A stretch of DNA of 64,000 bases from Lachnospiraceae bacterium (GCA_022791815.1 JAAVZU010000006.1:15186-79185), one strand, 5' to 3'; shown: positions 5,664-63,973, numbered from the stretch's first letter. Notes: a model not told the origin generated them from the letters alone. Numbers and translations: made by a program.

Positions 5664-5763
5664 TACTATAAAAGTTCTGACAAAGGACTAGGCTTCTGAA
5701 GCTGCTGTAGCTTGGAAAGATAATATAAAAATAAAATGGATTGTAAAGAAAAGGGGTTTTAAA

Positions 5764-6732: not shown

Positions 6733-6746
6733 GGAGAATATACATT

Positions 6747-7055
6747 ATGATTCTTGATTTGGTATGCGAAGCAGTAGAAATCAAAATACACTTTGAGAAT
6801 TTTACTGGAGTAATACAGTCTAATTTTGAATTGGGATACGCTCTAGGAAAAATGAAGAAGAAACTTGGTATGGAACTAGAAAAGGAAGAAGAACTTGCTT
6901 TACTAAAAGAAAAAGTGGAGAAGCAAATGGAATCCTATACACCAGAAGATTTTATCGAAGAGAATCTAATGAAACTGATTCGGGAATATCGGATGCAGGA
7001 TAGATTTGGTTCAGAGATTTCAGAATTAATTCAAAGAGGATATGATTCAGAATAG
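6747..7055 (+). CDS. Small acidic hypothetical protein
   Basis: RBS AAGGAG 8 nt upstream, 14 nt after the lipoprotein stop. 102 aa with no recognisable motif. Confidence 0.55.
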   Translation: MILDLVCEAVEIKIHFENFTGVIQSNFELGYALGKMKKKLGMELEKEEELALLKEKVEKQMESYTPEDFIEENLMKLIREYRMQDRFGSEISELIQRGYDSE

Positions 7056-7494: not shown

Positions 7495-8808
7495 ATGAAG
7501 GGTTTACGGTATGGGGTGGCTGCAGCTCTTACAGTTATCTTGCTAAGTGGTTGTGGTAACAGCAAGGACGAAGGTTCTGTGTATTACCTAAATTTTAAGC
7601 CGGAAGCCTCAGGTACATGGCAGAAAATTGCTCAGGAATATACAAAAGAAACAGGGGTGAAAGTGAAAGTTTTGACTTCTGCAAGTGGTAACTATGAGCA
7701 AACATTGAAGGCAGAGACTGCAAAGAGAGATATGCCGACTTTGTTTCAGATTAATGGACCTGTAGGGTATAGCAATTGGAAGAATTTTTGTGCAGATTTG
7801 AAAGACACAGAACTTTATAACTGGCTGCTTGATAAGGATATGGCAGTTCAGGATGAGAAAGGGGTATATGGTATTCCTTATGTGGTAGAAGGATACGGAA
7901 TTATTTACAACAATGCTATTATGAAAAAATATTTTTCATTGCCAAATAAGGCGGTATCCTATTCTAAAATGGAAGAAGTAAATAATTTTGATAAGTTAAA
8001 AGAAGTTGTAGAAGATATGACAGCACATGCAGAAGAACTTGGTATAGAAGGGGTTTTTGCTTCTACTTCTTTTAGTTCTGGAGAGGATTGGCGTTGGCAG
8101 ACACATCTTGCTAACCTTCCAGTTTATTATGAGTTTAAAGATAAAGGGATATCAGATAGTGATACATTGGACTTTACTTATGCAAATAATTTTCGTAATA
8201 TTTTTGACTTGTATATAGATAATTCTTGCACATCAAAGGCAGATCTTGCGAAAAAAACTGTAAACGATTCTATGGAAGAGTTTGCACTTGGAAAAGTTGC
8301 TATGGTACAGAATGGAAACTGGGCATGGGGACAGGTAAAAGACGTAGAAGGAAACAAAGTAACAGAAGAGGATATCAAGTTCCTGCCGATTTATACAGGG
8401 GTATCTGGAGAGGAAACACAAGGATTGTGTACAGGAACAGAGAATTATATTTGTGTTAATTCTATGGCATCTGAGGCAGACCAAAAGGCATCCATAGATT
8501 TTATGGAATGGGTATTTAGTTCTGATGTGGGAAAACAATATGTTACCAATGATTTGGGATTTATCTCTCCATTTAATACATTTACAGAAGAAGAGAGTCC
8601 AAGTGATCCATTGGCAAAACAGGTATTGGAATATATGAGTAATAAAGATTTGTATTCTGTAAACTGGAATTTTACTGCATTCCCAAGCCAGAAGTTTAAA
8701 GATGATTTTGGTGCAGATCTTTTGAATTATACCAAGGGAAAACGTGAATGGGAACAAGTGATGGAAGACGTAAAGAGTAAATGGGCTTCCGAAAAAGCAG
8801 GAGAGTAG
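7495..8808 (+). CDS. Extracellular solute-binding lipoprotein (ABC-type, family 1; sugar-type)
   Basis: Lipobox LLSGCGN. Length and sequence style fit carbohydrate SBPs. No permease or ATPase genes are adjacent. Confidence 0.85.
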   Translation: MKGLRYGVAAALTVILLSGCGNSKDEGSVYYLNFKPEASGTWQKIAQEYTKETGVKVKVLTSASGNYEQTLKAETAKRDMPTLFQINGPVGYSNWKNFCADLKDTELYNWLLDKDMAVQDEKGVYGIPYVVEGYGIIYNNAIMKKYFSLPNKAVSYSKMEEVNNFDKLKEVVEDMTAHAEELGIEGVFASTSFSSGEDWRWQTHLANLPVYYEFKDKGISDSDTLDFTYANNFRNIFDLYIDNSCTSKADLAKKTVNDSMEEFALGKVAMVQNGNWAWGQVKDVEGNKVTEEDIKFLPIYTGVSGEETQGLCTGTENYICVNSMASEADQKASIDFMEWVFSSDVGKQYVTNDLGFISPFNTFTEEESPSDPLAKQVLEYMSNKDLYSVNWNFTAFPSQKFKDDFGADLLNYTKGKREWEQVMEDVKSKWASEKAGE

Positions 8809-8820
8809 GGGGTGTGGAAT

Positions 8821-10545
8821 ATGAGAAAAGCTGAAAAGACGAAAAAAATAGAAAAGCAAAACCAGTCATTGAAAAAGGCAATGACAATTCGTTCAAAAGT
8901 AGCAGTACTTATGGCATCCACATCTATTCTTTTAATTGCTGGGCTTTTAATTGTTTCTTATGTGGTCAATAAGAAAAATATTGTGGAATTGTGTGAAAGT
9001 TATCTGTATGATACATGTATTTCTGCCTCAGATACCTTGTATGAAAGTTTTTATGGAGATACAGAGCGAAATGATATGGGAGTCCGTTTGGAATATATTC
9101 TTTATAGTGTTGGAATTGATACAATGGATTCCAGTAAGGGTTATCTGGTAGATAAGGATGGAAAATATCTTTACCATGAAGATAAAAATAAAGTAGGACA
9201 GGAGATAGAAGATAATCCAGTAATTGATAATGTATTGAAACGATTGCAGGAAGGTTATATTAGCACAGCAGATGTGCAGACTTGTACGATAGATGGGAAA
9301 AAAGTTTATGTTGCATTTATGTGTACAGTAAATGATTGGGTTATTTTTGTGCAGGCAGATGAGGCAGATGTATTAAAACCTGTATATACTATTAGAAACT
9401 ATTGTATTATTGTAGGACTAATATTGTTAGCAGTAATTCTTGCTATTGGATATTTTATTACTTTTGTAATTACAAAACCAATAGGCAGTTTAACTAAAGT
9501 TATTAACAATATTTCTGAATTAGATTTGGAGAGTGAAGTAAAACTTCTTAAGACCAATGACGAAATTGGTGTTATGGGAACAGCAGTTGCACAGATGAAA
9601 GGAAGGCTGACAGAGATTGTTTCAAAGCTAAACCAGATTTCTGAGCGTTTAGTGGAAGATTCCAATTCCCTATCTGATATTTCAGAGAAAGTGAATGTAG
9701 CTTCTGCAAATAACTCTAAAACAAGTGAACATCTTTCTGAAGGTATGGAGGCAACATCAAACTCTACAGTTGTAGTAAATGACAGCATTAAGAGTATGAA
9801 TGACAATGTAACGAATGTAGCAGATAAAATTGCAGAAGGAAGTAAGCTGACAACCAGTGTTATGAATAAGAGTTATGAGATTCGGAAGAAGACTAAAGAA
9901 GCCAGCCAGGAAACTTTAAAAGTGTATGAAAGTATTCGGAAGACTTCAGATGTGGCAATTGAGAAGGCAAAGGAAGCAGAGAAAATCAATGGACTTGCAA
10001 CTTCTATACAAAATATTGCAGAACAGACAACATTACTTTCACTAAATGCTTCTATTGAAGCAGCAAGAGCAGGAGAACAAGGAAAGGGATTTGCTGTTGT
10101 GGCAAGTGAAATTGCAAAACTTGCTTCAGAATCTACAGATACCAGTATTAGTATTTTAAATATTGTGGATGAAGTAAATGCTTCTGTAAAAACTTTGATT
10201 ACATGTTTAGTGGATGCATTGAATTTCCTAGAAGGAAAAGTTATGCAGGATTATTCGGATTTTTCAGAGTCTAGTGATGAATATAGTGATGCAGCTCGTT
10301 CTATTGAGCAATTTATGAAACTTGCAAATGAAGAAATTAGCCAATTAGAAGAAGGAATCTCTCATATTAGTGATGCAATGGAAAATATTAGCTCTACGAT
10401 CAATACTTCTGCTGAGGGTGTTGCAGATATTGCAGAGAAAACAACAGACGTGGTAGGATTAACATCAGAAACATTTGAGCGTACCATGAATTGTAAGGAT
10501 TTAGCAGAGAAATTAAGAGAGATTACAGTACAATTTAAACTGTAG
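8821..10545 (+). CDS. Methyl-accepting chemotaxis protein with periplasmic Cache-like sensor, HAMP and MA domains
   Basis: Two TM helices flank a ~140-aa extracellular domain. Highly conserved MCP hairpin region AEQTTLLSLNASIEAARAGEQGKGFAVVASEI. ATG 8821 follows AGGGGG; starts 12 nt after the SBP stop. Confidence 0.92.
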   Translation: MRKAEKTKKIEKQNQSLKKAMTIRSKVAVLMASTSILLIAGLLIVSYVVNKKNIVELCESYLYDTCISASDTLYESFYGDTERNDMGVRLEYILYSVGIDTMDSSKGYLVDKDGKYLYHEDKNKVGQEIEDNPVIDNVLKRLQEGYISTADVQTCTIDGKKVYVAFMCTVNDWVIFVQADEADVLKPVYTIRNYCIIVGLILLAVILAIGYFITFVITKPIGSLTKVINNISELDLESEVKLLKTNDEIGVMGTAVAQMKGRLTEIVSKLNQISERLVEDSNSLSDISEKVNVASANNSKTSEHLSEGMEATSNSTVVVNDSIKSMNDNVTNVADKIAEGSKLTTSVMNKSYEIRKKTKEASQETLKVYESIRKTSDVAIEKAKEAEKINGLATSIQNIAEQTTLLSLNASIEAARAGEQGKGFAVVASEIAKLASESTDTSISILNIVDEVNASVKTLITCLVDALNFLEGKVMQDYSDFSESSDEYSDAARSIEQFMKLANEEISQLEEGISHISDAMENISSTINTSAEGVADIAEKTTDVVGLTSETFERTMNCKDLAEKLREITVQFKL

Positions 10546-10680
10546 AACCTAATGTGTAGAGCCGCTAGAGCGACAGCTTGGATTGTGAATACATAGCAGG
10601 CGGTTATAAGAATATGCGGTGTGTAGTAACTGACACTTTTATTCATGATGGTGCTGACAAAGGCAGCATGTAGGTTTAAA
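10546..10680 (-). repeat. Family-2 nested-hairpin repeat, partial copy (first two thirds, inverted orientation)
   Basis: The reverse complement aligns with 21427-21560 (AAACCTACATGCTGCC...AAAGTGTCAGTTAC...CACATTAGGTTC). Abuts the MCP stop codon. Confidence 0.75.
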
Positions 10681-10707
10681 TATTTTTATAAAAGAAAGAC
10701 AAAGAAA

Positions 10708-21426: not shown

Positions 21427-21635
21427 AAACTATATGCTGCCTTCGGCAGCACCACTATAAATGAAAGTGTCGGTTACTTCGCACTACATGCTCTTGTAAC
21501 CGCCTAATGTGTATTCGCAATCCAGGCTATCGCCTTACATGCTCATACACATTAGGTTCTACGATAGATATATCAATTGGTTCTTATGCAAGCACAAACC
21601 AATTGATTATCTATCGATAACACTTTCAGAGTAAA
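21427..21635 (+). repeat. Family-2 nested-hairpin repeat, full copy (fills the ilvD-ilvB spacer)
   Basis: 5' hairpin TGCTGCC-ttc-GGCAGCA, then outer stem GAAAGTGT/ACACTTTC enclosing three hairpins (CGGTTAC/GTAACCG; CCTAATGTGTAT/ATACACATTAGG; GATAGATA..CAATTGGTT/AACCAATTG..TATCTATC). Ends 15 nt before the ilvB ATG. Near-identical copy at 59971-60181. Confidence 0.85.
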
Positions 21636-23820: not shown

Positions 23821-23997
23821 AAATTGAGCTAATATATGGTACTAACAGTAACAAGTTCGTTACAGTTTGCAACATAGGTGTGGACTGTAACACAAGTTCA
23901 TTGACTTGCAGATAGAAAAAGAAAATAGAAAACTACTACAAGATATGCTATACTAAACAAAACAAAGAACCTTATGAGGAAAATAGGAGGGGAAATT

Positions 23998-25683
23998 ATG
24001 GCAAGAACAGTTTCCATAGGAAATCAGGACTTTGAAAGTATACAGAAGAATAATTATTTTTATGTTGACAAAACAAATATAATAAAAGAATGGTGGGAGA
24101 GTGGAGATGCAGTCACTTTGATTACACGTCCAAGACGTTTTGGAAAGACACTGACCATCAGCATGTTGGAGCAGTTCTTTTCCAATCGTTATGTAGACAG
24201 GAGCGATTTGTTTGAGGGTCTGTCTATCTGGGAATATCCGAAGTATCAGGAGTTGCAGGGGACTTATCCAGTCATCAGCCTATCTTTTGCCAGAGTAAAA
24301 GAGAAGGATTATATTACAACCAGAGAGAAAATTTGTGAGATAATTACCAATCTGTATATTAAATACTATTTTTTGAGAAATAGTGAAGTTTTAACAGAGA
24401 AAGACAGGGAATATTTTGACAGAGTGTCAACAGATATGCGTGACAGTGATGCTACATCTGCATTATACCAGTTGTCTGATTATCTGTGCCGTTACTATGG
24501 AAAAAAAGTCATTATCTTATTAGATGAGTATGACACCCCTATGCAGGAAGCTTATGTACACGGCTATTGGGAGGAACTTGTGGTATTTACCAGAAGTCTG
24601 TTTAATGCAACTTTCAAAACAAACCCCTATCTGGAACGTGCCATTATGACAGGGATTACAAGAGTAAGCAAGGAGTCAATTTTTTCCGATTTGAATAATC
24701 TTGAGGTAGTTACTACGACTTCTGAAAAGTATGCAGACTGTTTTGGGTTTACAGAACAAGAGATATTTGAATCACTTGATGAGTTTGGGCTGTCCGATAA
24801 AAAAGAAGAGATAAAGCATTGGTATGATGGTTTTACTTTTGGCAACCTGAGCGATATTTATAATCCATGGTCGATCATAAATTATCTAGACAAGAAACAG
24901 TTCAGACCCTATTGGGCAAATACCAGTCCCAACAGTTTGGTGGGGAAACTGATAAAAGAAGGAAGTCCGGAAATTAAGAAAGCTATGGAAGATCTCATAG
25001 AGGGGAAATCTTTGACAGCAGAGATTGATGAACAGATTGTTTTTAACCAGCTTGGACAAAGGGAATCTGCCATCTGGAGCCTGCTTCTTGCCAGCGGTTA
25101 TTTAAAAGTAAAAAATTATGTTTTTGATGATGCAAGAGATGGATTTTTTTATAAAATGGTATTAACAAACAGGGAAGTAATGTTTATGTTCCGAAATATG
25201 ATTAAGGACTGGTTTTCTCAGTATACATCGGACTATAATGAATTTATTAAGGCTCTGCTTCTGGGAAATGTAAAAGCTATGAACACTTATATGAACCGGG
25301 TGGCACTGCAGACCTTCAGCTTTTTTGATACAGGAAAACATCCATCAGAATATACAGAGCCAGAGCGGTTTTACCATGGTTTTGTGTTAGGTTTGATGGT
25401 AGACCTGCAGAACCGCTATCGCATTTTATCCAATAGGGAAAGTGGTTTTGGCAGATATGATGTGGTGTTGGAACCAAAGAACAGAGAAGATGACGGAATT
25501 ATTTTGGAATTTAAGGTTCAGGATGAGGAAGATGAAAAAACTCTTTCTGATACAGTATCAGCGGCACTGAAACAGATTGAGGAGAAACAGTATGCAGCAG
25601 ATTTGGTATCAAAGGGAATACCAGAAGAGAAAATCAAAAAGTATGGATTTGCTTTTCAGGGAAAGAAAGTACAGATTGGATAG
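23998..25683 (+). CDS. AAA-ATPase-like N-terminal domain protein with C-terminal PD-(D/E)XK nuclease-like domain
   Basis: FESIQKNNYFYVDKTNIIKEW...ITRPRRFGKTL (P-loop-like) at the N-terminus. C-terminal SNRESGFGRYDVVLEP...GIILEFKV (D...E.K). ATG 23998 follows GGAGGGG. Confidence 0.8.
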   Translation: MARTVSIGNQDFESIQKNNYFYVDKTNIIKEWWESGDAVTLITRPRRFGKTLTISMLEQFFSNRYVDRSDLFEGLSIWEYPKYQELQGTYPVISLSFARVKEKDYITTREKICEIITNLYIKYYFLRNSEVLTEKDREYFDRVSTDMRDSDATSALYQLSDYLCRYYGKKVIILLDEYDTPMQEAYVHGYWEELVVFTRSLFNATFKTNPYLERAIMTGITRVSKESIFSDLNNLEVVTTTSEKYADCFGFTEQEIFESLDEFGLSDKKEEIKHWYDGFTFGNLSDIYNPWSIINYLDKKQFRPYWANTSPNSLVGKLIKEGSPEIKKAMEDLIEGKSLTAEIDEQIVFNQLGQRESAIWSLLLASGYLKVKNYVFDDARDGFFYKMVLTNREVMFMFRNMIKDWFSQYTSDYNEFIKALLLGNVKAMNTYMNRVALQTFSFFDTGKHPSEYTEPERFYHGFVLGLMVDLQNRYRILSNRESGFGRYDVVLEPKNREDDGIILEFKVQDEEDEKTLSDTVSAALKQIEEKQYAADLVSKGIPEEKIKKYGFAFQGKKVQIG

Positions 25684-31122: not shown

Positions 31123-31743
31123 TGTGAATTTTGGTACTATGTCAAGTTTTAGTACAAATTAAATCGGGAAGATTTTTAATAATCCATTATCCGAAAACGG
31201 TTTATCCACTCACTTTTTAATATAGCATGGAAATATTCTATACACGCATTGTCCCATGGATACGCTTTTTTGGAATAACTTAACTTCCATCCTTCCGCTG
31301 CTTCCCTGTATGCATCACATGTATACTGGATTCCACGGTTACTGTGCATGACTTTGGGCTTATCCATATGTCTCTCTTTTTTCACTTTTTCAATTGCTTC
31401 CACAACCCATTGTGCTTTCAATGTATCCCTTAATTCCCTCTTCAGTCTGGCTATTTCCTTTGCCTCATCACTGGAATAATTACCTGAACCTCTTACTGGC
31501 ACTTCACCATGATTCTCTTTGGCAGCTTTTGCCCATGTGCCTAAAGCTGTTTTGCTGATACCAAGATTCCCAGCACATTTTAATAACCCAAGTTCTTTGT
31601 GTTCTAAATAATATTTTATCGTATCTTCTTTAAATTGTTTATCATAATGTTTACTCATGAAAAATCTCCATCCTTTCTGTTTTTTATTGTAACTTATTTT
31701 AGGAATTTTTCCACTTTTAACTTGTACCATTTTTATTCTAACA
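31123..31743 (-). mobile_element. IS3-family insertion sequence remnant with internal deletion (~620 bp)
   Basis: Imperfect terminal repeats both begin TGT and share GAAT..TGGTAC..CAAGTT..AGT (31123-31155 versus the reverse complement of 31711-31743). Encodes a fused OrfA/OrfB-tail ORF. A full IS3 element would be ~1.2-1.5 kb. Confidence 0.7.
31176..31658 (-). pseudogene. IS3 transposase remnant: OrfA HTH fused to the extreme C-terminus of OrfB
   Basis: MSKHYDKQFKEDTIKYY...SDEAKEIARLKRELRD (IS3 OrfA) runs directly into HSNRGIQYTCDAYRE...YPWDNACIEYFHAILKSEW (the end of the DDE domain). The catalytic core is missing. Confidence 0.8.
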
Positions 31744-31747
31744 CTAG

Positions 31748-32332
31748 ATAGACAAGGCATATTATATCTGTCAAACATATAACCGTTTAGGCAAAAATGC
31801 CTGCACAAGCCATAAAATCGAGGCGAGGGATTTATACAATCTTGTGCTTTCGGACATACAGGAAGTCGGGGCTATGGCACTGAAGGACAAAGAAACGTTT
31901 TATGGCAGACTAAACCAAAAGATAGAAAAACAGTACCTTGCGGATACGGACAGTCTGAAAAAGGAATACGAGAACCTTGCACAGCGTAATCAGGAGATTG
32001 ATGATACCTTTATCAGCCTGTATGCGGACAAGGCAAAAGGAATACTTACGGAAAAGCGTTTTCTGAAGCTGACAGATGCAATGGAAAAGGAGCAGGAAAG
32101 CAACCAGAAACGTATGCAGGAGATAGCATCACTTATCAGTGAGGAGGAACAGTCAGAGGGAGATGTGCAGATGTTTATGGGGGAAATCAGGCGATATGCT
32201 GCCATTACAGAACTTGATGAAACAGTGTTGAACCGACTGATTAACCGCATATTGATAGGAGAGCCTAAGAAAGTGGACGGGGTAAAGACACAGGAAGTAC
32301 GGATTGTATATAATTTTGTCGGGGAATTGTAA
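31748..32332 (+). pseudogene. C-terminal fragment of a large serine recombinase (zinc-ribbon + coiled-coil/DUF4368-like tail)
   Basis: The open frame begins right at the IS end with no start codon: YYICQTYNRLGKNACTSHKIEARDLYNLV (recombinase Zn-ribbon pattern) ... EVRIVYNFVGEL. The N-terminal resolvase catalytic domain is absent. Confidence 0.75.
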
Positions 32333-33214
32333 AATAGTAGGGTATTGTGCTATGTAACTGAAAATAATAACCAAGAGAGCAGGGATTTGAGAGAGTCCTT
32401 GCTAAGAGTGTTTCCGACACTCCTAAAAGGTGTGTCGGTATCTGTTAAAATTGTTTCGGATTAAGTAAGCATAGATAGTATAATATTATTGGAATTTATT
32501 TAATGAAATTGATTAAATATAATATCCTTAATAAAATATCCTTAATAAGTTTTTAAGATACTGAAAAATGCATTATAACAGGGTGTAATTGAAGATTCTG
32601 AATTGAATTGTTAATAAAAAATGAGGAATTAGTAAAAATATACAAAGATTTACTTTGTATTTCTGTTTGATAATAAATTTTTTATATTATAAAATTAAAA
32701 TATATTATTTATGCTAGTAAGGTTCAACAAGAATAAAATTAAAATTTTTAAGAGCAGGGAGGGGATAATACAGGAAAAGGAAAGGAAGGAAAAGCTAATG
32801 TTATGTGAGACGATTTTCTTACATGATAATTACTAAGGATAAAAATACTCAACTGAATATGGGTAATAGAAATACATATAAAATTAAGCTATTAAGTGAA
32901 ATTTGTTGAAAAATATAGGGACTGATATAGCAGGTTGGTTTCTTTATTATTAAAAATGAAACAATAGAAGCATTGGCTTTAATGGATAAAAGTACATAAA
33001 AATACAACGATTATTGTCTGGCAGTGCTATCTGGTTTTGAAAAATGGAAGTGCTGTATAAAATGGCAAAGAGAGAAAAATTAAGGGACTATGGATAAAGC
33101 ATTTTCTAACAATCAGGTAGAAAGAAAATGAGAAATGAATCTACGAAACCTTAAAGAAAATAGTCATAATTATTAGGAGATAAAAGTGGCTATGATGTGA
33201 TTGGAGGTATTTTT

Positions 33215-36200
33215 ATGCGTAATTATTCAATAAATAAACAAGTGAAAAGAATATTAGCAGGTATTTTGACCATAATTATGGTTTTTGTGAGCATTGACCT
33301 GAGCCAATTTGTATCTGTTCAGGCGGCAACCGAGTATGATACATTATATTTGATTGATAATACTGCTGAAAAGTGGGTAAAAAATGACAATGCTAAAATC
33401 AAAGCAATTGATAACAGCAATGGACATACGGCATATTGGATGACAAAAAAGAACGAAACTACATGGAGTGTTAAAGTTCCTAAAAGTGCATATAACATTA
33501 CTTTTAATCGTTATGCCGAGGATAAAACGACACAATGGAATTCGTGGAGTGCCGGAGGAAGAGATAAAAACAATGCATATTATGTGGACGGAAGTGAATA
33601 TGGTCATTGGGGTATTAGCGATGAAGAAGAAGAATATTTCCATGCAGGAGATATTATATATCTTGATGTATCAGAGTTTACACAATGGGAAAATGATGAT
33701 GCAGTGATGTATGCTAATTTTACCAATGCATCTAAGGAAGAAAATAGTGGAAAAGATGTATTGATATCTGGTGCAAATAAAGAGATTTACAATCCTAATA
33801 AAGTCAAAAATAAGGTAGAAAAAGGTATATATCAGTATATTGTTACACAAGAAGATGAAGAGGCAACTATGTTGAGGTTCTGGAGGGGGAATGATACAAC
33901 TTTATGGAATTGTTCGGTGGTTCTCTCTTATGATGACTATTTAAAAGGGTTAAATTGTGTAAAAATTACAAAATGGGAAAATACTGGGGATATTTACCAT
34001 TATAAATATAATATTGATAAAGAAAAAGATACCGATAATGACAATGTTCCTGATTATATTGAAAATCTTTTAGGAACAGATATAACTTCAGATGATACAG
34101 ATGGGGATGGACTTTCTGATTATATTGAGATATATATAACAGGAACAGACCCAATCTATGTTGATACAGACGAAAATGGTGTAAATGATGGCGATGAAGA
34201 TGCTGATGCTGATGGACTTACAAACTTAGAAGAAATTACATATGGAACAAATGCAGCATTAAAAGATACAGACGGAGATTCTTTAACAGATTATGATGAA
34301 ATCAACATTTATGGAACAGATCCGCTTTCTGCAGATACGGATAAAGATGGAGCCAATGATGGTATTGAAGTTTCTATGGGAACAGATCCACTTGTGGCTG
34401 AATCAAGCTTTAAGGTTCATGCAACATCAAGTGATATAGATACAGTAAAAGCATCTGTTGACATAGAACTTTCAGCAAAACAGCTTACAACATTATCGGT
34501 CGAGCGATATGAAGATGAATTCATGTTTCCTAAGGAAATCCCAGGATATATTGGTGGATGTTATGAATTTAGTGTTGATGGAAGCTTTGATGAAGCAACA
34601 ATCAATTTTGAATTTGATGAGACACTTTTAGAGGATAGTGATTTTAATCCTGTAATATATTATTTTAACGAAAGTGAGCAGGAGCTTGAGGCACTTGATA
34701 CAACAGTAAAAGGAAATGTGGCAAGTGCAACAACATGTCATTTTTCTAAATATATCCTTTTAAACAGAATTGTTTATGAGGAGTCCTTCACATGGCAGGA
34801 TGTGTGGACAAGCAATAACTATACAGATGTTGAAATTGTATTAGTGATTGATGATTCAGGAAGTATGACTCAAAATGATAAGACAAATCAAAGACTTTTA
34901 GTAGCCCAGACTTTGATTGATCATTTACCAAGAAATAGTAAGGTAGGTGTTCTTAAGTTTACAAACTCAACTACTCGTCTTACATCAAAGATTACTTCTG
35001 ACAAGGATGCAGCAAAATCTTATCTCACAACATCATATTTTAAGTCATCTGGCGGTACTTATATGTATAGTGCTGTAAATTCGGCTCTTGGGCTGTTTGA
35101 GTCACCTGCTGATACAACTCTAAGAATGATGGTAGTATTAAGCGATGGTGAAACATCTGACAAATCAAGTCATTCGACAACAGTGACAGCAGCAAATAAT
35201 AGTGGTGTGAAGATTTATTCTATAGGTCTTGGATCAGGGAGTTCCTCATATTTTACAAATTACATGAAACCGCTTGCAGTAAATACAGGTGGAATGTTTT
35301 ATCTTGCTTCAAATGCAACACAGCTTTCTGATATCTATAAGGATATTACAGAAAAAATTGATATTGAAACAGATAGTGATAGTGATGGGATTCCAGATTA
35401 CTATGAAGATAATATGATCATGTTCAACGGAATGAGGTTGACTCTGGATAAGAACAATCCGGATACAGATAATGATGGCTTAAAGGACGGCGAAGAAGTT
35501 TGTGAGCTTAAGTATGAGTACAATTCGGATAAGACTAAGGTCAAGGTTACAGGAAAAATCATAGCTGATCCAACAGTGAAGGATACAGATTACGATGGAA
35601 TCAATGATGATATAGATGAAAATCCATTGTTAGGCAAATTTACAGGAAAAATGATTAGTTACTATGATGCATCTGATGCAAGCTATACTTTTGATTATCG
35701 TCAGTTCTTTGAGAATAGCACAACGTTTAATAAGGCTATAAGCACATCTTCAATTATATTTGCTAATACAATATACGATAACTGGGGATTCTCATATGAA
35801 ACAGGAAATAGTGGAGAAATCAAAGACATTAAAACTCTTATGGAACTTCATGGTTTTGAAAACGTAGAGAATTATGATCTAAAAATTAACTATGATGATG
35901 ACGATGTATCTGAAATTGGAATTGGATTTCATAATGTGACCTATAAGGATGAGACATTAACTGTTTTAGCAGTAATTGTTAGAGGCACAAATGGTACTAT
36001 CAAGGAGTGGAGTAGTAATGTAAATTTGGGAGATCCAGATAGCTGGTCGTCTGATTGTCATAAGGGATTTTATACTGCAGAGCAGAGAATTATGAAGTAT
36101 CTTAAGGAATATCTTGATGCAAATGAGGAACTGTTTGAATCAAATATTGTATATTGGGTAACAGGTCATTCAAGAGGAGCTGCTATTGCCAATCTCTTAT

Positions 36201-36910
36201 CAGCAGAGTTAATTGACAATGGAAAGAATGTATATGGATATACGTATGCTTCACCAGGAACTACTATTAGCTCAGAGAAAACTGCAGCTAAGTATAATTC
36301 TATATTTAATTTAAAAAACAGTAGTGATGTTATAACATATGTGCCACTTCCGCAGTGGGATTTTGGAACATTTGGAGTAACAATCCATACAGATATTACA
36401 GCATTGAAACTTGATTATGTGTGGTGTAAACAGACAGGTCGGTCACAATATAACGCATTCAGTAGTAGTGTGTTGAATGTTGCAACAAATCGTCTTTACA
36501 AAAGCTGTGCATCTTCATGGGCTGAGGCTTATGATTATGCTGGGGTTCAAAATATTTCGGATGACCAATATGCAATGATTTCAGAACGTGCAAAGAGATA
36601 CTGTAAGATTGAAGAGAGAAAGACTTTATTTGGAAATCATAAAGGATATAAACTTTATCCTTCAACTATATTTATGTTCCAGATTTGTATGGAGATTTAT
36701 GCTGGTTCTAAGACAGAACAGGCTAATTCATTAGAATTATTGAAAGAATTTATTAACAGTAAATTTGCAGGAGCTTTGATTCTTTTAATAGGAGAAGTTT
36801 TAATAACTGGTATTCCTGAAGAACTTGATGAATCAATGGTGGGAGACGGACATTCTCCTTCAACTTACTATGTGTTGAATAACAAATTTATAGAGACCGA
36901 GGGGGTTTAA
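33215..36910 (+). CDS. Large secreted multidomain protein: two beta-sandwich modules, TSP3-type Ca-binding repeats, vWA domain, second TSP3 block, C-terminal class-3 lipase domain
   Basis: Signal peptide ending VSVQA-AT. DxDxDGxxDxxE repeats at ~34015-34395 and ~35370-35630. MIDAS DDSGS at 34850-34864. Lipase triad candidates are GHSRG (36164-36178), DVITYVPLP (36326) and DGHSPSTYY (36851). ATG 33215 follows GGAGG. Confidence 0.85.
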   Translation: MRNYSINKQVKRILAGILTIIMVFVSIDLSQFVSVQAATEYDTLYLIDNTAEKWVKNDNAKIKAIDNSNGHTAYWMTKKNETTWSVKVPKSAYNITFNRYAEDKTTQWNSWSAGGRDKNNAYYVDGSEYGHWGISDEEEEYFHAGDIIYLDVSEFTQWENDDAVMYANFTNASKEENSGKDVLISGANKEIYNPNKVKNKVEKGIYQYIVTQEDEEATMLRFWRGNDTTLWNCSVVLSYDDYLKGLNCVKITKWENTGDIYHYKYNIDKEKDTDNDNVPDYIENLLGTDITSDDTDGDGLSDYIEIYITGTDPIYVDTDENGVNDGDEDADADGLTNLEEITYGTNAALKDTDGDSLTDYDEINIYGTDPLSADTDKDGANDGIEVSMGTDPLVAESSFKVHATSSDIDTVKASVDIELSAKQLTTLSVERYEDEFMFPKEIPGYIGGCYEFSVDGSFDEATINFEFDETLLEDSDFNPVIYYFNESEQELEALDTTVKGNVASATTCHFSKYILLNRIVYEESFTWQDVWTSNNYTDVEIVLVIDDSGSMTQNDKTNQRLLVAQTLIDHLPRNSKVGVLKFTNSTTRLTSKITSDKDAAKSYLTTSYFKSSGGTYMYSAVNSALGLFESPADTTLRMMVVLSDGETSDKSSHSTTVTAANNSGVKIYSIGLGSGSSSYFTNYMKPLAVNTGGMFYLASNATQLSDIYKDITEKIDIETDSDSDGIPDYYEDNMIMFNGMRLTLDKNNPDTDNDGLKDGEEVCELKYEYNSDKTKVKVTGKIIADPTVKDTDYDGINDDIDENPLLGKFTGKMISYYDASDASYTFDYRQFFENSTTFNKAISTSSIIFANTIYDNWGFSYETGNSGEIKDIKTLMELHGFENVENYDLKINYDDDDVSEIGIGFHNVTYKDETLTVLAVIVRGTNGTIKEWSSNVNLGDPDSWSSDCHKGFYTAEQRIMKYLKEYLDANEELFESNIVYWVTGHSRGAAIANLLSAELIDNGKNVYGYTYASPGTTISSEKTAAKYNSIFNLKNSSDVITYVPLPQWDFGTFGVTIHTDITALKLDYVWCKQTGRSQYNAFSSSVLNVATNRLYKSCASSWAEAYDYAGVQNISDDQYAMISERAKRYCKIEERKTLFGNHKGYKLYPSTIFMFQICMEIYAGSKTEQANSLELLKEFINSKFAGALILLIGEVLITGIPEELDESMVGDGHSPSTYYVLNNKFIETEGV

Positions 36911-36917
36911 TCAGATT

Positions 36918-37223
36918 TTGAGAAACTATATAAAAATTTTTTCGATAACCATATCCATACAAATTGTTGCAGTAGCATTGGGCTTCGTTCTGGCTTTTGA
37001 TTCGGGACGTGGCTACAGTGCACTTCCGATGTTGATTGTTGTTGGATATGTTATTTCTTTGATAACAGACATCTATCTGGCAGTGAAGATTGATACCATT
37101 TGGTATAAAAAAATGATTTACATATTCTTGATGCCAACAAACTATACACCAATCGGATTGCTATGGTTTGCAATGTATTGTTTGGGGAAATTTTTTGAGA
37201 TGCTACCACCTAATCTTGGTTGA
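36918..37223 (+). CDS. Small three-helix membrane protein immediately downstream of the lipase gene
   Basis: TTG start 7 nt after the lipase stop, with GAGGGGG 12 nt upstream. About 100 aa, three hydrophobic segments. The start codon is uncertain (internal ATG at codon 38). Confidence 0.45.
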   Translation: MRNYIKIFSITISIQIVAVALGFVLAFDSGRGYSALPMLIVVGYVISLITDIYLAVKIDTIWYKKMIYIFLMPTNYTPIGLLWFAMYCLGKFFEMLPPNLG

Positions 37224-37394
37224 AAGATTTAAGTCAATAACTTAATAATTCAAACTGTCTATATCAATAGGGTGTATTTGAATTTTATACTTTATATATT
37301 TCTAACATAAGTGATTTAAATAGTTGCTTTGAGTATTAATAACAACATAATACAAAGGATATGGGATTTAACTATATATAATAATTATTTTACA

Positions 37395-37423
37395 AAAGAG
37401 AGCTAATTAATTGCTCTCTTTTT
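37395..37423 (+). terminator. Rho-independent terminator after the lipase/membrane-protein pair
   Basis: AAAGAGAGC-taattaatt-GCTCTCTTT followed by TT. Confidence 0.65.
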
Positions 37424-37873
37424 CTTATAAAAATAATCAATTTTTTTAATTTTAATCAGAAAACTTAATATGTCCGAAAATAAATTTTTCTAACAAGAGA
37501 TAAAACAGTTTTTATATCAGATAAAAGAAATGTCGTAAGCGATGAATAACCTACCGTTCCCGTACCTCTCTTTTTATGAGATAATCATCTTACATGGATC
37601 ACAACCTAAAGGACGAATTAAGTGATATTCCTCTTTTTTATGGAAGGGGTTGCATCCCATCACTTCTGTTATTAAACAATATTTGTAATGAAATGGGTAA
37701 TGGAAGGTTATCGGAGGAGATAATGCAAATTGTAGCAGATCTTAATCCAAATGCAATAGTGTAAGTTGTGTTTTACAGCCAGCCTTCCAGCTGGCTGATA
37801 TTATGTCATAGTTTTTGAGCATGGGGTAACAAACAAAATAAGTATTAGACTTTTGTGGAAGGAAGTTAGTACA

Positions 37874-38150
37874 ATGAAAAAAAGTAAATTTTTTTGTCCT
37901 ATACTTGACAGATGTAGGATTTCCAGTTTGGTGGGGGAAAGAACCAATGATTATACGGACTTTTTTGGAATCCTACAAACTAAAAGGAAAAAAGATTGTA
38001 CCATTTTGCACTAGTGGTGGAAGTGGTATCTCTGGAAGCATGAAAGGCATAAAAAAGGCAGCAAAAGGTGCAAAAGTGGTAAAAGGAAAAGATTTAACAG
38101 ATTTGTCTTACAAGAGTGTAAAAAAATGGGCGAAAAAGAAAGTGAAATAA
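37874..38150 (+). pseudogene. Flavodoxin-like gene remnant (signal-peptide start fused out of frame to the C-terminal half)
   Basis: ATG 37874 gives MKKSKFF..., then a frame change. The ORF 37905..38150 encodes only the C-terminal flavodoxin segment (GFPVWWGKEPMIIRTFLESYKLKGKKIVPFCTSGGSG). About 100 aa of the N-terminal FMN-binding part are missing. Confidence 0.6.
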
Positions 38151-38466: not shown

Positions 38467-40710
38467 TTATTTTACAGATAAATCCGTCTTCTGACCTTTT
38501 GCACAGCGTCTTCGGTTTTTAACCTTTTTGGCATTATAAGATATATCATTGTAAATAAAAGTTTCTGTATCTGGAGATAGGGCAGTACCGAATACAACGT
38601 AGTCCTCTCCAGTAAGTGTAATTGCTTTTACACCACGGCTGCTACGTTTTAGCTGGGATACCTCATTTAGTTGGAAACCAAGAGATAAACCATCTTTTGT
38701 TAGAATAATAACCTTTCTGTCATCAGCAAGAATATCATTGGCAGATAACTGGGTGATAGAAACAATCTTATCCCCCTGTTCTAATTTTGTTGAGGCAATT
38801 ACGGAACGATTCGTTTCAAATTCTGCTCCAGATACTAGTTTTATAAATCCATTTTTCGTAGTAAATAAGAGCATACTGTCAAATAATTCTTCAAAACTAA
38901 AATAAGCAAGTACTTCTTCTCTTTCCAATTTACATAAGGAATGGATTAAGGTTCCTTTATCTTTTGCTCGGCATTTTGGAAGGTTCATGCCTTTTACCTG
39001 ATACATATTTCCTTCTGTGGTAAACACACAAAGCTTATCTGTATTTTTCATGGAAATAGTAAAAGAATGTTCTGCTTTTGTCGTTTCACTGGTCCTTCCA
39101 TAAGTGGTAGCATCTAATTTTTTTGTATAACCAAATCGGTCAATTAAAATATAAAGTTCTTCTTCTTTTACCTCTTCCACATAACTTTCATTTTTGGTAT
39201 TTGTAAGAAGTGTTTTTCTTGGGGCAGCAAATAATTTCTTATATTCACGAAGACGGCTTTTGATTACTTTGTAAAGTTCTTTTTTATTGGATAAAATAAT
39301 TTCATATTTTTGAATATTTTCTGCAAGAGAGTCTCCTTCTTCATGAAGTTTTAAAACTTCTAAACCAATTAATTTGCTAAGCTGCATAGAAAGAATAGCA
39401 TCTGCCTGTCGTTCTGTAAAATCAAGAGTCTGGGCAGTTTTGGAAGATGCTTTGCTTTTGAAATTAATATCTGTGATATCTCCATGCATAAGGCAGGCTT
39501 TTGCCTGTTTGATGGAGGTACTTCCACGAAGAATTTCAATAATCAAGTCAATTAAATCTGTAGCACGAATTAAACCATTTACAATTTCAAGCCGTTGTTT
39601 TGCTTTTTGAAGAAGATGTGTATACTCTTTTGTATATAATTCTTCTTGAAAAAGTACGAACTCCTCAATCAGAGATTTTAGATTAAATGTAATTGGTTGT
39701 TGCTCCTTGACTGCAAGAAGATTTACCGAATAAGTATCTTCTAAGCTTGTCTTTTTGTAAAGACCATTTAGCAGGTTTGTAATATTACGGTCTTTTTTTA
39801 CCTCTATAACAATACGGATACCCTCCTTAGAAGATTCATCTCTTACATCATAGATTTCATCAAATACCCTGTCTTTCATGAGAGTAGCAAGATTTTCTAC
39901 AAGTTTTGACTTATTTCCTGCTACCGTATAAGGAATTTCAGAAATAACAATGTTTTCTCTTCCGGCATCACCTTTTTCGATATTCACTTTCCCACGAATT
40001 TTTAATTTGCCTTCCCCAGTACGGTAAATGTTGGGAATATCGGATTGGTTTACAATAATACCCCCTGTTGGAAAATCTGGAGCAGGAATATATTCCATAA
40101 GTTTCTCAATAGAAATAGAAGGTCTGTCCATATAGGCAATCACTCCATCAATAACTTCAGATGGATTGTGAGGCGGTATATTAGTAGCCATGCCTACTGC
40201 AATACCTGTAGTTCCATTAATAAGTAAATTAGGAAGTATAGCAGGCAGAACAGAGGGTTCTTTTTCGCTTTCATCAAAATTGGGTATAAATTCTACCAAA
40301 TCCTTATCCAGATTGTCAAGCATAGTCTTTGCACCAAGAGAAAGACGGGCTTCCGTATATCGCATTGCGGCTGCACCATCTCCATCAATAGAGCCAAAGT
40401 TACCATGCCCATCCACAAGAGGAATAGATAAAGAATATTCTTCTGTCATGTGTACCAAAGCATCATAAATGGAACTGTCACCATGTGGGTGATATTTACC
40501 CATAGTATCACCCACAATACGGGCACTTTTTCTATGTGGGCGGTCAGGAGCAAGACCTAACTCACTCATAGCATACAAAATCCTTCGTTGTACTGGTTTT
40601 AAACCATCCCTTACATCTGGTAAGGCACGGGCAATAATTACACTCATAGCGTAATCACGGTAAGAATTTTTCATCTCTTCTGAAAAATCAATTTGAATAA
40701 TATTTTCCAT
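38467..40710 (-). CDS. parC: Type IIA DNA topoisomerase subunit A (topoisomerase IV ParC-like; a second GyrA paralogue cannot be excluded)
   Basis: [21 protein letters not shown] and active-site [10 protein letters not shown]. 747 aa, shorter than typical GyrA. No GyrA-box (QRRGGKG) seen in the C-terminal beta-pinwheel. Confidence 0.85.
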
Positions 40711-40750
40711 AATCTATACCAAAACTATAAAAGTATCCTTTCTTGTAATT

Positions 40751-40880
40751 ATTCAGGTAGAAACACGCATTTACTGCGTGTTTACGTAGCAAAATGTAAA
40801 TTTTGATTGTTCTAAGCCCTTCGCTGAAAGCGAATTTCCATGGGCTTAGAACGTAAGTGTTCATGGTTCTGAACAGTTAC
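40751..40880 (+). repeat. Family-1 three-hairpin repeat, full copy (A-B-C) between parE and parC
   Basis: ATTCAGGTA-GAAACACGC-atttact-GCGTGTTT (40751-40783). TCTAAGCCC...[TTCGCT-gaa-AGCGAA]...GGGCTTAGA (40811-40850). GTAAGTGTTCA-tggttc-TGAACAGTTAC (40853-40880). Confidence 0.88.
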
Positions 40881-40930
40881 CCTTTCTTAATAAATATTTA
40901 ACAACAGAAATATAATTGCCAAGATTTTTA

Positions 40931-42898
40931 TTAAACATCCAGATTTGCATATTTTGCTTCTTCCATAATAAATGCACGACGAGGTGGAACATTACTGCTC
41001 ATAAGAGTTGTAGTGATTTCATCTGCTTCCACAGTATCACTAATGGAAACTTGTGCAAGGATTCTGGTTTCTGGATTTAAGGTAGTTTCCCAAAGCTGTT
41101 CTGCGTCCATTTCACCAAGACCTTTGTACCGTTGGACATTAAGAAGTTTATTTCCTGGAATTTTTTTGAATTTTTCCAGTTCAAAATCATTAAAAATATA
41201 TTGAGACTTTTTGGTCTTTTTACGTCCTGTTTTCTTTTTTGATGAATCAGTCTTTTTCGTATCATTTGTTGTCTCATATTCTACACGATACAGAGGTGGA
41301 AGACCACGGTAAATCTTACCTTCTGTAATTAGCTGCGGCATAAAACGATAGAAAAAGGTAAGAAGTAAAGTGCTAATGTGTGCCCCATCTACATCGGCAT
41401 CTGTAAGAATAATAATTTTATCATATCGAAGTTTGGTAATATCAAATTCATCTCCAATTCCACATCCAAAAGAAGCAATCATGGATTTGATCTCATTGTT
41501 TAGAAGAATTTTTTCAAGGGAAGCTTTCTCCACATTTAAAATCTTGCCCCTAAGAGGAAGAACGGCTTGTGTCTTACGGTTTCTTGCTGTTTTTACGGTA
41601 CCACCTGCGGAATCTCCCTCCACAATATAAACTTCACATTCTTCTGCTTTTTTGGAAGAGCAGGAAGCAAGTTTACTGCGGGTATCCACATCATGAAGCT
41701 GCTTTAATACAGCATTTCTCGCTTTATCGCTGGCTTTTCTGGCATTATATGATTTCATGGAATTTTCTAAGATGCAGCGAAGAACTTCAATATTTTTATC
41801 AAAATACCGCTGGACTTCTGTAGAGAATACATCATCTACTGCACTTTTTGCGTCTGTATTGCCAAGTTTTGTTTTGGTCTGTCCCTCAAACTGTGGGTCA
41901 GGATGTTTGATAGAAATAATGGCGAAAATGCCATTACGAATATCTTTGCCATCAAAGTTTTCGTCTTTATCCTTTAATATGCCAAGTTCCCTTGCATAAA
42001 GATTCATTACTCGGGTAAGTGCAGTTTTAAAACCAGTAACCAGAGTACCACCATCTACCACATTGATGCGGTTGCAAAAGGCATTAATTTGTTCTGAATA
42101 ATTATTGGTATATTGAAAAGCAACCTCTACCTCAATATCACCACTTTTCCCCTCTATGTAAATAGCATCTTCATGTAAAACTGTTTCTTCACGGGTCAGG
42201 TAACGGACAAAACTCTGTATACCAAATTCTTCCTGATAAGTAATCTCTTCATCTGTATATTCATTTTTGAAAGTAATCTGTAGATTTTTATTCAAATATG
42301 CAATTTCTTTTAATTTTTTCTTTATAATTTCACTTTTAAAAACTACAGTTTCAAAAATACTATCATCTGGATAGAACGTAACAGTAGTACCAGTGTCTGA
42401 CTTTTTGCAGGTGCCAATTATTGGTAATTGTCCTTTTACCAGTTTGGTAACAGGATGACCACCGTTTTCATAAATATCCTGATATATATTCCCATCTCTT
42501 CGGATCTCTACTTTCATTTTGGAAGAAAGAGCATTCACAACGGAAGAACCTACACCATGCAGACCACCAGATACCTTATAAACGGTGTTATCAAATTTTC
42601 CGCCAGCATGAAGAATGGTATAAACCACACGTACAGTTGGAATTTTCTTAGTTGGGTGTAAATCCACTGGTACACCACGACCATTATCTTTAATGGTGAT
42701 ACCTCCATCTTTTTGCAGGGTAATATTTATTTTTGAACAGAATCCTGCCAAATGTTCATCAATACTATTATCTAAAATTTCCCAAATTAAATGATGCAAA
42801 CCCCGTTTGCCAGTACTTCCAATATACATACCTGGTCTCTTACGGACAGCTTCTAAACCTTCTAAAACCACAATCTGGCTTCCATCATATTGTCCCAT
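40931..42898 (-). CDS. parE: Type IIA DNA topoisomerase subunit B (ParE/GyrB family ATPase)
   Basis: GLEAVRKRPGMYIGST, HHLIWEILDNSIDE (GHKL ATPase) and Toprim EVYIVEGDSAGG...DADVDGAHI motifs. RBS GGAGG upstream. Confidence 0.88.
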   Translation of the reverse strand: MGQYDGSQIVVLEGLEAVRKRPGMYIGSTGKRGLHHLIWEILDNSIDEHLAGFCSKINITLQKDGGITIKDNGRGVPVDLHPTKKIPTVRVVYTILHAGGKFDNTVYKVSGGLHGVGSSVVNALSSKMKVEIRRDGNIYQDIYENGGHPVTKLVKGQLPIIGTCKKSDTGTTVTFYPDDSIFETVVFKSEIIKKKLKEIAYLNKNLQITFKNEYTDEEITYQEEFGIQSFVRYLTREETVLHEDAIYIEGKSGDIEVEVAFQYTNNYSEQINAFCNRINVVDGGTLVTGFKTALTRVMNLYARELGILKDKDENFDGKDIRNGIFAIISIKHPDPQFEGQTKTKLGNTDAKSAVDDVFSTEVQRYFDKNIEVLRCILENSMKSYNARKASDKARNAVLKQLHDVDTRSKLASCSSKKAEECEVYIVEGDSAGGTVKTARNRKTQAVLPLRGKILNVEKASLEKILLNNEIKSMIASFGCGIGDEFDITKLRYDKIIILTDADVDGAHISTLLLTFFYRFMPQLITEGKIYRGLPPLYRVEYETTNDTKKTDSSKKKTGRKKTKKSQYIFNDFELEKFKKIPGNKLLNVQRYKGLGEMDAEQLWETTLNPETRILAQVSISDTVEADEITTTLMSSNVPPRRAFIMEEAKYANLDV

Positions 42899-59970: not shown

Positions 59971-60181
59971 AAACTTACATGCTGCCTCTGGCGGCAATAC
60001 TATGAATGAAAGTGTCGGTTACTCCGCACTATGTGCTCCCGTAACCGCCTAATGTGTATTCGCAGTCCGAGCTATCGCTCGGTGGCTCATACACATCAGG
60101 TTCTACGATAGATATAGCAATTGGTCTTTGTGCAGGCACAAACCAATTGCTATATCTATCGATAACACTTTCAGAGTAAAT
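59971..60181 (+). repeat. Family-2 nested-hairpin repeat, full copy, ending 22 nt before the prfB ATG
   Basis: Collinear with 21427-21635. The third hairpin is perfect here (GATAGATATAGCAATTGGT/ACCAATTGCTATATCTATC) and carries paired substitutions relative to the ilvB copy. Confidence 0.85.
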
Positions 60182-63753: not shown

Positions 63754-63973
63754 ATTGAATATGATGCTAGGGTCAAAAGTAGATAACAATGCATGTTTAC
63801 ATGCAAATTGTTATCTACTGGCTTGACCCGCCAAACACCGACAAGAAGCAGATTTGCTTGCAAATATGCGGGATTGGAGGTGTTTGTAGGATTGCGGGAA
63901 TTGCATAGCAATGTAGCAATCCGTAGCATCAGTTGGGGGCAAAATAACTTTTGACCCCAACATCATTGAATAT
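63754..63973. mobile_element. MITE-like element: 202 bp (63763-63964) with 18-bp imperfect terminal inverted repeats, flanked by a perfect 9-bp direct repeat
   Basis: The left TIR is GATGCTAGGGTCAAAAGT. The reverse complement of the right end is GATGTTGGGGTCAAAAGT (16/18 match). ATTGAATAT occurs at 63754-63762 and again at 63965-63973. The interior folds into three hairpins and has no ORF. Confidence 0.75.

Follow-up and report, generated by a model that had tools for sequence, protein, structure and literature searches.

What does a bacterium do with an exported protein that joins adhesion-type modules to a lipase, and why is it followed, 7 nt past its stop codon, by the gene for a small membrane protein? 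The question is raised by a gene pair in a 64,000-nt stretch of DNA (hereafter the window, in which all coordinates are given) of Lachnospiraceae bacterium GCA_022791815.1 (JAAVZU010000006.1:15186-79185). The first gene encodes a protein of 1231 amino acids (aa) with thrombospondin type 3 (TSP3) repeats, a von Willebrand factor A (VWA) domain and a C-terminal lipase domain, and the second a protein of 101 aa. A preliminary description of this DNA had tentatively likened the two to effector/immunity pairs. We consider it likely that the two are a toxin and its immunity gene and belong to a polymorphic toxin family that Bacillota export through Sec. As judged from sequence comparison, the large protein would be one lipase allele of many in this family, and the 101-aa protein most likely protects the producer from the lipase. 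The earlier wording of adhesion modules driving a lipase would then be better replaced by that of a toxin-delivery scaffold.

Among the candidates scored in a search of 5.8 billion proteins, more than 4556 were significant relatives, and a scan of one genome per species found a relative in more than 456 species-level genomes, the hosts including Lachnospiraceae, Oscillospiraceae, Roseburia faecis, Ruminococcus albus, Paenibacillus, Priestia, Neobacillus, Bifidobacteriaceae, Methanosarcina and Methanoperedens. Comparison of the 1231-aa protein with its best 120 relatives by BLASTP resolved three modules with sharp breakpoints, i.e. an N-terminal module (residues 1 to ~265), a conserved core (~267-800) and a C-terminus (~800-1231). 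The breakpoint between core and C-terminus falls at ~799-806, many homologues being 60-64% identical to the window protein up to residue 799 and unrelated beyond it. The N-terminal module is exchanged as well: in P0042 and P0113 it is 81-82% identical to that of the window protein, with cores merely 33-40% identical, and in other relatives it is replaced by CBM_2, Flg_new (Listeria-Bacteroides repeats), Big_2, SLH or DUF11. Pfam scans of the relatives gave as alternative C-termini AHH, CDI_toxin_EC869_like, Ntox35, an XOO_2897-type deaminase, DUF4474 and DUF3289, the last of which has been reported as an effector domain of type VI secretion systems (T6SS). A PT-HINT pre-toxin domain was found in a Paenibacillus relative and an Amidase_6 C-terminus in a relative on plasmid pRUMAL01 of R. 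albus 7. Because shuffled ends and toxin C-termini thus recur across the family, with a shared N-terminal and central part and differing toxin domains beyond a break at ~799, it bears the signature of a polymorphic toxin family.

The genes downstream change together with these C-termini. Downstream open reading frames (ORFs) were called for 47 family members, ~44 of which had enough sequence, and a same-strand ORF was present within 100 nt in 36 of them. In an all-against-all BLAST, the clusters of downstream ORFs coincided with those of the C-termini: EC869-like C-termini are followed by ~320-aa proteins, DUF4474 by DUF5104 proteins (often tandem duplicates) and DUF3289 by ~175-aa proteins. 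The AHH allele P0059 has an Imm11 protein 14 nt downstream, a Tox-AHH/Imm11 pairing listed by Zhang et al. (2012; PMC3482391). The partners of the nuclease-type alleles are soluble proteins, not membrane proteins. The core is kept, the C-terminal toxins are swapped and the downstream genes, including the small membrane ORF of the lipase type, co-vary with them, as expected of immunity genes, which bears out the tentative effector/immunity reading. From the computed architecture, polymorphism, co-variation and residue conservation we infer toxicity of the large protein and protection by its neighbour.

The succession of DUF4474 C-termini and DUF5104 proteins (loci L018:8663-9631, L018:10191-10724 and L019:9517-10170) hints at a toxin domain in DUF4474 and at the corresponding immunity family in DUF5104; no literature on either domain was found. 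In another locus (L017), two family toxins lie in tandem (3621-6842 and 7957-10698), the second being followed by two 80%-identical ORFs of ~317 aa and then by a 64-aa truncated copy of the immunity family of the window, an arrangement suggestive of an immunity array that retains a displaced remnant.

The preliminary description had placed a three-helix membrane protein of ~100 aa behind the large gene, and this ORF indeed belongs to a conserved family. The 101-aa protein has about three hydrophobic helices, and half of it is nearly invariant (WYKK..YIxLMPTNYTP..FFEMLPxNLG). Its homologues form 16 clusters at 61-84% identity, and the family is narrow: 1.84 billion representatives contain 45 clusters of it at 50% identity, every one ~100 aa long. 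A member is encoded 6-21 nt past the toxin stop in six of the six independent lineages examined that carry this lipase subtype: the window pair itself, L011 (P0002, whose toxin is 73% identical and whose genomic surroundings differ), L097 (P0006), L099-102 (P0007, which an integrative mobilisable element carries), L014 and L106-107 (P0021). Orphan copies, free of any toxin, occur in at least four further contexts, i.e. after purL, after a GerE regulator beside Abi_2, beside an integrase and as a fragment. The small membrane protein thus appears, from these comparisons, to be specifically linked to this lipase subtype. In a diverged lipase subtype (L015, L016), other small multi-helix membrane ORFs adjoin the toxin. 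A metagenome scan with the immunity profile returned five loci only, among them L097, too few for statistics.

The element of P0007, the commonest lipase-type relative, carries genes for a MobA/MobL relaxase, an integrase, an excisionase-like helix-turn-helix (HTH) protein and a DDE transposase; P0007 itself has CBM_2 as its N-terminal module. The element is inserted in at least three contexts and is listed in 1368 blocks of the collection index. An extra membrane ORF of 84 aa follows the immunity gene in L099-L102. Among the orphan copies, one is overlapped by 4 nt by a 154-aa ORF (L001:7540-8004) and one lies beside an Abi_2 abortive-infection gene (L005:8735-9709). This 154-aa ORF and the GerE regulator upstream in L005 were considered as toxin remnants and rejected, as neither is one.

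The C-terminal domain was predicted, by profile and by model, to be a class-3 lipase with a Ser-Asp-His triad, as the preliminary description had proposed. Lipase_3 (PF01764) matches residues 920-1046 with 45.2 bits (cut-off 22), and phmmer against PDB retrieves fungal class-3 lipases, in which Ser146 and Asp201 of the Thermomyces lipase align with the Ser of GHSRG and the Asp of SSDVITYVP. An AlphaFold2 (AF2) model of residues 800-1231 (pLDDT 91.8, pTM 0.92) was placed by Foldseek nearest to feruloyl esterase A, fungal lipases and plant phospholipase A1 (PLA1), with E-values of 5e-7 and weaker. S986, D1038 and H1213 are each 100% conserved among 61 lipase-type homologues. The possibility that the domain lacks a lipase fold or triad, raised earlier, was checked in this way, and both were found by profile and structure search. 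Between Asp and His lies a mostly helical insert of ~130 residues (1081-1205), in which the lipase subtypes diverge. Once the signal peptide is removed, a single strongly hydrophobic segment is left, and it lies in this insert just before His1213, a helix (1179-1204) present in most, not all, relatives of the same lipase subtype, which may serve in membrane insertion or in docking of the immunity protein.

This fold, nearest to fungal lipases, feruloyl esterases and plant PLA1, would also suit a secreted or surface lipolytic enzyme that serves nutrition or colonisation, an adhesin-lipase with dietary or host lipids as substrates; the small membrane ORF would then be an unrelated co-transcribed gene. 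The CBM2, SLH and Big_2 modules of relatives are typical of polysaccharide-degrading surface enzymes, and ZU5 surface proteins with lipases and glycohydrolases for matrix remodelling were noted by Zhang et al. (2012; PMC3482391). We nevertheless regard such a role as improbable: nucleases, a deaminase and an amidase, which have no nutritional role, are found on this carrier too, together with their cognate downstream genes, Imm11 included, and the small ORF tracks the lipase subtype over six lineages in differing contexts and occurs in orphan copies besides.

The carrier that precedes the lipase begins with a Sec-type signal peptide, as had been claimed, in which a K/R-rich stretch is followed by a hydrophobic one ending in VQA/A; homologues show the same N-terminal pattern in their consensus, and a hydropathy plot of the 1231 residues shows just one other segment of comparably strong hydrophobicity. 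Profile searches for Lipase_3, VWA and TSP_3, proposed in the preliminary description, all gave matches above the Pfam gathering scores (TSP3_bac; VWA at 541-709; Lipase_3 at 920-1046). The VWA match (59 bits, cut-off 23.8) includes an intact metal ion-dependent adhesion site (MIDAS), in agreement with the earlier claim: D546 and D644 are invariant in the homologue alignment, and S548, S550 and T615 are at least 90% conserved. The TSP3 repeats do lie in two blocks, and a regular expression for canonical DxDxDxxxDxxE counts nine of them (six and three) rather than the ~11 first estimated. Two carbohydrate-binding-like beta-sandwich modules had been proposed for residues 38-265 and were not confirmed, as this segment has no Pfam match and gives noise only with phmmer against PDB, and its two halves show no significant mutual similarity. 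Given its exchange among relatives, it may be a surface- or glycan-binding targeting module. The reported absence of an LPXTG motif holds for the whole 1231-aa sequence.

VWA and TSP3 resemble adhesion modules of eukaryotes, phospholipase effectors often act on eukaryotic membranes, and distant relatives are found on Vibrio nigripulchritudo plasmids; a toxin against eukaryotic cells (host epithelium, gut protozoa or fungi), from which the membrane protein would shield the producer during export, is consistent with these points. It is unlikely, since orphan immunity genes in other bacteria make sense only with bacterial targets and since sister alleles carry antibacterial domains of the contact-dependent inhibition (CDI) and T6SS types with their immunity genes. 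Release factors are encoded in some toxin loci (colicin lysis genes, the holin-like TcdE), and the 101-aa protein, which is small and polytopic and whose gene is translationally near that of the toxin, might be read as a holin-like release or export helper rather than an immunity protein, which we consider very improbable given that the toxin has its own Sec signal peptide, that the membrane protein is not found scaffold-wide (nuclease-type alleles having soluble partners) and that orphan copies exist without any toxin.

Between the first TSP3 block and the VWA domain, the preliminary description had overlooked a beta-sandwich (residues 393-535), the AF2 model of which has a pLDDT of 88.7. Foldseek matched this model best to ankyrin ZU5A-ZU5B (E 3.8e-3, prob 1.0, TMq 0.48-0.50), followed by the FIIND of NLRP1 and by GAIN; all three fall in the autoproteolytic ZU5 superfamily delineated by Zhang et al. 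(2012; PMC3482391), who proposed ZU5 as a processing autopeptidase of polymorphic toxins. The triplet H509-F510-S511 is invariant in two family alignments, and HFS is present in ~160 of 167 family members, including ones with only 29-33% core identity and archaeal ones. Known autocleavage motifs are HFS in PIDD and Nup98 and SFS in CARD8 and NLRP1, situated in a loop right before a long beta strand, and in FIIND-type proteins the fragments remain non-covalently associated after autocleavage (PMC3210808). In our model the triplet lies in the turn preceding the last strand, and the motif is stronger evidence for ZU5 kinship than the fold match. The domain is probably an autoproteolytic site, with a predicted cut between F510 and S511 and fragments that stay associated. 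Pfam scans of all 25 members used for this domain gave scattered chance matches only. The TSP3/HFS-domain/VWA core, with HFS intact, was also observed in the archaea Methanosarcina sp. 2.H.T.1A.6 (L063) and Ca. Methanoperedens nitroreducens (L066).

Coordinates of the gene pair, its predicted domains and its flanks in the 64,000-nt window
Feature	Position (nt)	Strand	Basis or remarks
Mobile-DNA remnants upstream	31176..32332	.	Pfam HTH_Tnp_1 and DUF4368
IS3-type transposase fragment	31176-31808	-	Pfam HTH_Tnp_1
DUF4368 recombinase C-terminal fragment	31844-32332	+	Pfam DUF4368
AT-rich non-coding leader	32333..33196	.	23-29% GC
Putative toxin gene	33215..36910	+	single ORF, 1231 aa, ATG at 33215
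Sec-type signal peptide, residues 1-37	33215..33325	+	MRNYSINKQVKR, hydrophobic core, VQA/A
Variable N-terminal module, residues 38-265	33326..34009	+	swapped among homologues; no Pfam or PDB match
TSP3 block 1, 6 repeats, residues 272-385	34028..34369	+	regular expression and Pfam TSP3_bac; Asp/Glu columns invariant
ZU5-like beta-sandwich, residues 393-535	34391..34819	+	AF2 model and Foldseek
HFS motif, H509-F510-S511	34739-34747	+	within ZU5-like domain
VWA domain, residues 541-709	34835..35341	+	Pfam VWA, E 9e-16; MIDAS DDSGS (D546-x-S548-x-S550), T615, D644
TSP3 block 2, 3 repeats, residues 720-801	35372..35617	+	regular expression
Predicted C-terminal toxin domain, class-3 lipase fold, residues 800-1231	35612..36907	+	Pfam Lipase_3, PDB phmmer, AF2/Foldseek
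Predicted triad codon Ser986	36170-36172	+	
Predicted triad codon Asp1038	36326-36328	+	
Hydrophobic helix, residues 1179-1204	36749-36826	+	hydropathy
Predicted triad codon His1213	36851-36853	+	
Candidate immunity gene	36918..37223	+	TTG start, 101 aa, 7 nt past toxin-gene stop
Truncated flavodoxin gene fragment	37905-38150		downstream flank of pair

If the pair is a toxin/immunity module, it could work as follows. The signal peptide would direct Sec export across the membrane, and the ZU5-like domain would cleave itself between F510 and S511 into an N-terminal fragment with the targeting module, TSP3 and ZU5 and a C-terminal one with VWA, TSP3 and lipase, held together non-covalently via the beta strand after HFS as in FIIND, GAIN and Nup98. 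Calcium-loaded TSP3 repeats would stiffen the stalk, the N-terminal module and/or the VWA MIDAS site would bind a surface ligand on a neighbouring cell, and the lipase would hydrolyse membrane phospholipids of that cell from outside, possibly after interfacial activation through the hydrophobic helix 1179-1204. The small polytopic membrane protein would intercept the lipase at the membrane, protecting the producer and its kin.

Several points weigh against this reading or against parts of it. A close downstream ORF is common in bacterial operons, so that proximity alone is a weak argument and the co-variation is the real one. As to whether the small membrane ORF always accompanies the lipase, a question put in the preliminary description, one lipase-type relative, P0080 (L108), is without an obvious adjacent membrane ORF. 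P0006 lacks the hydrophobic helix, though its partner belongs to the same immunity family. A promoter and terminator scan of 32300-37900 gave site counts equal to chance. The ZU5 assignment draws on a moderate structural match (E ~4e-3, TM ~0.5) together with the motif; because a 25-sequence profile of the domain retrieved nothing from PDB by hmmsearch at E <= 10, the link to ZU5 stands on structure and motif only and is absent at the sequence-profile level. A ~130-kDa protein, or its lipase, would have to pass the wall of a Gram-positive target to reach the membrane, a passage for which the proposed mechanism does not account.

By analogy, the pair may work like WapA/WapI, CdiA/CdiI and the Tle/Tli lipase effector pairs. 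WapA of Bacillus subtilis, with its immunity protein WapI, is a Sec-dependent, wall-associated contact-dependent inhibition toxin. Like the window protein as predicted here, it comes from a Gram-positive host and has a signal peptide, modules at the N-terminus that bind the wall or surface, a long carrier of repeats and a C-terminal toxin that is polymorphic, with the immunity gene directly downstream. It differs in its RHS/YD-repeat carrier and tRNase toxin, in place of which the window protein has the TSP3, ZU5-like, VWA and TSP3 carrier and a lipase; RHS/YD repeats gave no Pfam match in the window protein at E <= 0.1. The Tle/Tli pairs of T6SS and TslA of the Staphylococcus aureus type VII secretion system (T7SS) are antibacterial lipases of the alpha/beta-hydrolase type; they have a GxSxG serine, target membrane phospholipids and are encoded next to an immunity gene. 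The window pair would resemble them in that immunity is encoded beside the lipase and placed at the compartment of toxin action, but Tle and TslA are delivered by T6SS or T7SS and met by periplasmic or lipoprotein-type immunity proteins, whereas here we find a Sec signal peptide, no secretion-system partner and a small polytopic immunity candidate. The immunity proteins of pore-forming colicins (Cai/Cei type) are inner-membrane proteins of ~100-180 aa with three to four helices that neutralise the toxin within the membrane. The 101-aa protein is like them in size and helices and has no sequence relationship to them; its toxin would be an enzyme rather than a pore former, and neutralisation within the membrane is a proposal.

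The systems surveyed by Zhang et al. (2012; PMC3482391) are alike in that a part for trafficking or carriage is conserved while the C-terminal toxins are exchanged and immunity genes are linked to them, and PT-HINT and class-3-lipase-like toxin domains (Tox-ABhydrolase-3) are described there. The ZU5 toxins of that survey are RHS proteins tied to a TcdB/TcaC pathway, whereas the ZU5-like domain described here sits between TSP3 and VWA in a protein that appears purely Sec-dependent; vWA and thrombospondin-type repeats are unmentioned in the survey. The FIIND (ZU5-UPA) of NLRP1 and CARD8, PIDD, Nup98 and GAIN share with the window domain a beta-sandwich and (H/S)-F-S on a loop before a beta strand, but are eukaryotic intracellular or receptor proteins with no sequence-profile link to it. 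The best NCBIfam matches, the Myxococcus adhesion and motility proteins CglD and MtsD, combine TSP3 and VWA in the same way and differ in having neither toxin C-terminus nor immunity gene.

Identity with CglD (NF033765, 53.5 against a cut-off of 400) or MtsD (NF047639, 26.5 against 800) was rejected, as were the BatA and sortase-target VWA families, with scores far below the cut-offs. A T7SS LXG toxin was likewise rejected, the N-terminus being a Sec signal peptide without an LXG match and the window neighbours including no Esx machinery.

The open-access literature searched yielded no description of the TSP3/ZU5-like/VWA scaffold, an absence that is not proof, and as far as these searches reach the architecture matches no characterised protein, as the preliminary description had stated. 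Relatives did turn out to be common, a finding that had been named beforehand as unfavourable if they were also characterised surface lipases never linked to the small ORF, but the literature searched held no description of them and the small ORF is linked to the lipase. What is new is the variant of the carrier scaffold; the kind of system, a polymorphic toxin, is known. The known interbacterial weapons of Gram-positive bacteria are, to our knowledge, essentially LXG toxins of the T7SS together with a small number of RHS proteins exported by Sec, WapA among them. The present locus suggests that dominant gut Clostridia (Lachnospiraceae, Oscillospiraceae, Ruminococcus, Roseburia) harbour a far larger family of Sec-dependent toxins, with exchangeable targeting modules and toxins and spread on mobilisable elements. 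Such a family would bring into the ecology of the gut microbiome a major group of genes for antagonism and immunity, give candidate functions to the DUF4474/DUF5104 pairs and to the PTNY membrane protein, and allow autoproteolysis of the ZU5/FIIND type to be studied in a bacterial model. The family is directly testable in cultured carriers, namely R. albus 7 with pRUMAL01 (RUMAL_RS17330/RS17325), R. faecis JCM 17581 and Eubacterium plexicaudatum ASF492.

A bolder version, which we put forward tentatively and do not ourselves expect to hold in full, is that the TSP3/ZU5-like/VWA/TSP3 carrier is an undescribed, machine-independent, Sec-only means of toxin delivery, which Clostridia of the gut and other Bacillota would use in their thousands and which has relatives among Bifidobacteriaceae, methanogens and haloarchaea. 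Autoproteolysis at HFS would create a two-piece, non-covalently latched weapon, receptor binding by the MIDAS site or the N-terminal module, or a mechanical pull, would free the toxin fragment onto the neighbour, and the PTNY-motif protein would represent a new intramembrane class of immunity protein against a lipase. If true, prokaryotes would have in such a latched weapon an equivalent of the 'cleave-and-hold' switch of FIIND/GAIN.

Further features were observed among the relatives. The nuclease and deaminase alleles P0014, P0015, P0059, P0061 and P0104 share, between the core and a toxin domain of ~100 aa, a region of ~250 aa (residues ~800-1050) with extra TSP3 repeats and a Gly-rich hydrophobic stretch, which the lipase allele lacks; no Pfam match was obtained for it, nor PT-TG or another known pre-toxin domain at E <= 1, and a role in membrane translocation or as a pre-toxin domain is possible. 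The Amidase_6 member of R. albus 7 pRUMAL01 (WP_013483403.1; NC_014824.1 133065-136250; L109) has the HFS and DxSGS motifs, and a 183-aa ORF (NC_014824.1 132517-133068) overlaps its stop by 4 nt. Weaker relatives, at 27-33% identity, are present on haloarchaeal megaplasmids (H1, H3-H5, H9-H12) and on the V. nigripulchritudo plasmids (H6-H8). A phage collection contained no relative of the core, and a phage origin is unsupported.

As to the locus itself, the ATG of the toxin gene is preceded by a GGAGG ribosome-binding site 8 nt 5' of it, and an alternative in-frame GTG at 33197 would give 1237 aa. An NCBI entry 100% identical to the 1231-aa protein (P0001) comes from a Lachnospiraceae metagenome-assembled genome (MAG) and is annotated 'VWA domain-containing protein'; the exact 101-aa protein is also in NCBI, from the same MAG source, as 'hypothetical protein'. 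The preliminary description had set the pair in a decayed mobile island behind ~0.8 kb of AT-rich DNA. The GC content is 23-29% over 32250-33000, against ~34% in the surroundings, and the promoter is presumably located in this leader. The neighbours of the pair in the window are LysR, insertion sequence (IS) fragments and parC/parE-like genes, and the remnants of an IS3-type transposase, a DUF4368 recombinase and a flavodoxin gene at its flanks agree with a decayed island. The truncated flavodoxin fragment suggests that insertion of the island disrupted this gene. Relatives sit on mobilisable elements with relaxases and integrases, and it was probably a mobile element, now decayed, that brought the module to this locus.

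Directly downstream of the island lies a ParC/GyrA-like and ParE/GyrB-like gene pair (38467-42898, minus strand). Elsewhere in the window, a 569-aa protein with AAA-ATPase_like and PDDEXK_9 nuclease domains (23974-25683, plus strand) is encoded upstream of serine-pathway genes and is apparently unrelated to the toxin pair. Three copies of the Clostridiales-1 RNA (Rfam RF01699; 92-113 bits) were detected, at 21462-21628 and 60007-60173 on the minus strand and at 63762-63931 on the plus strand.

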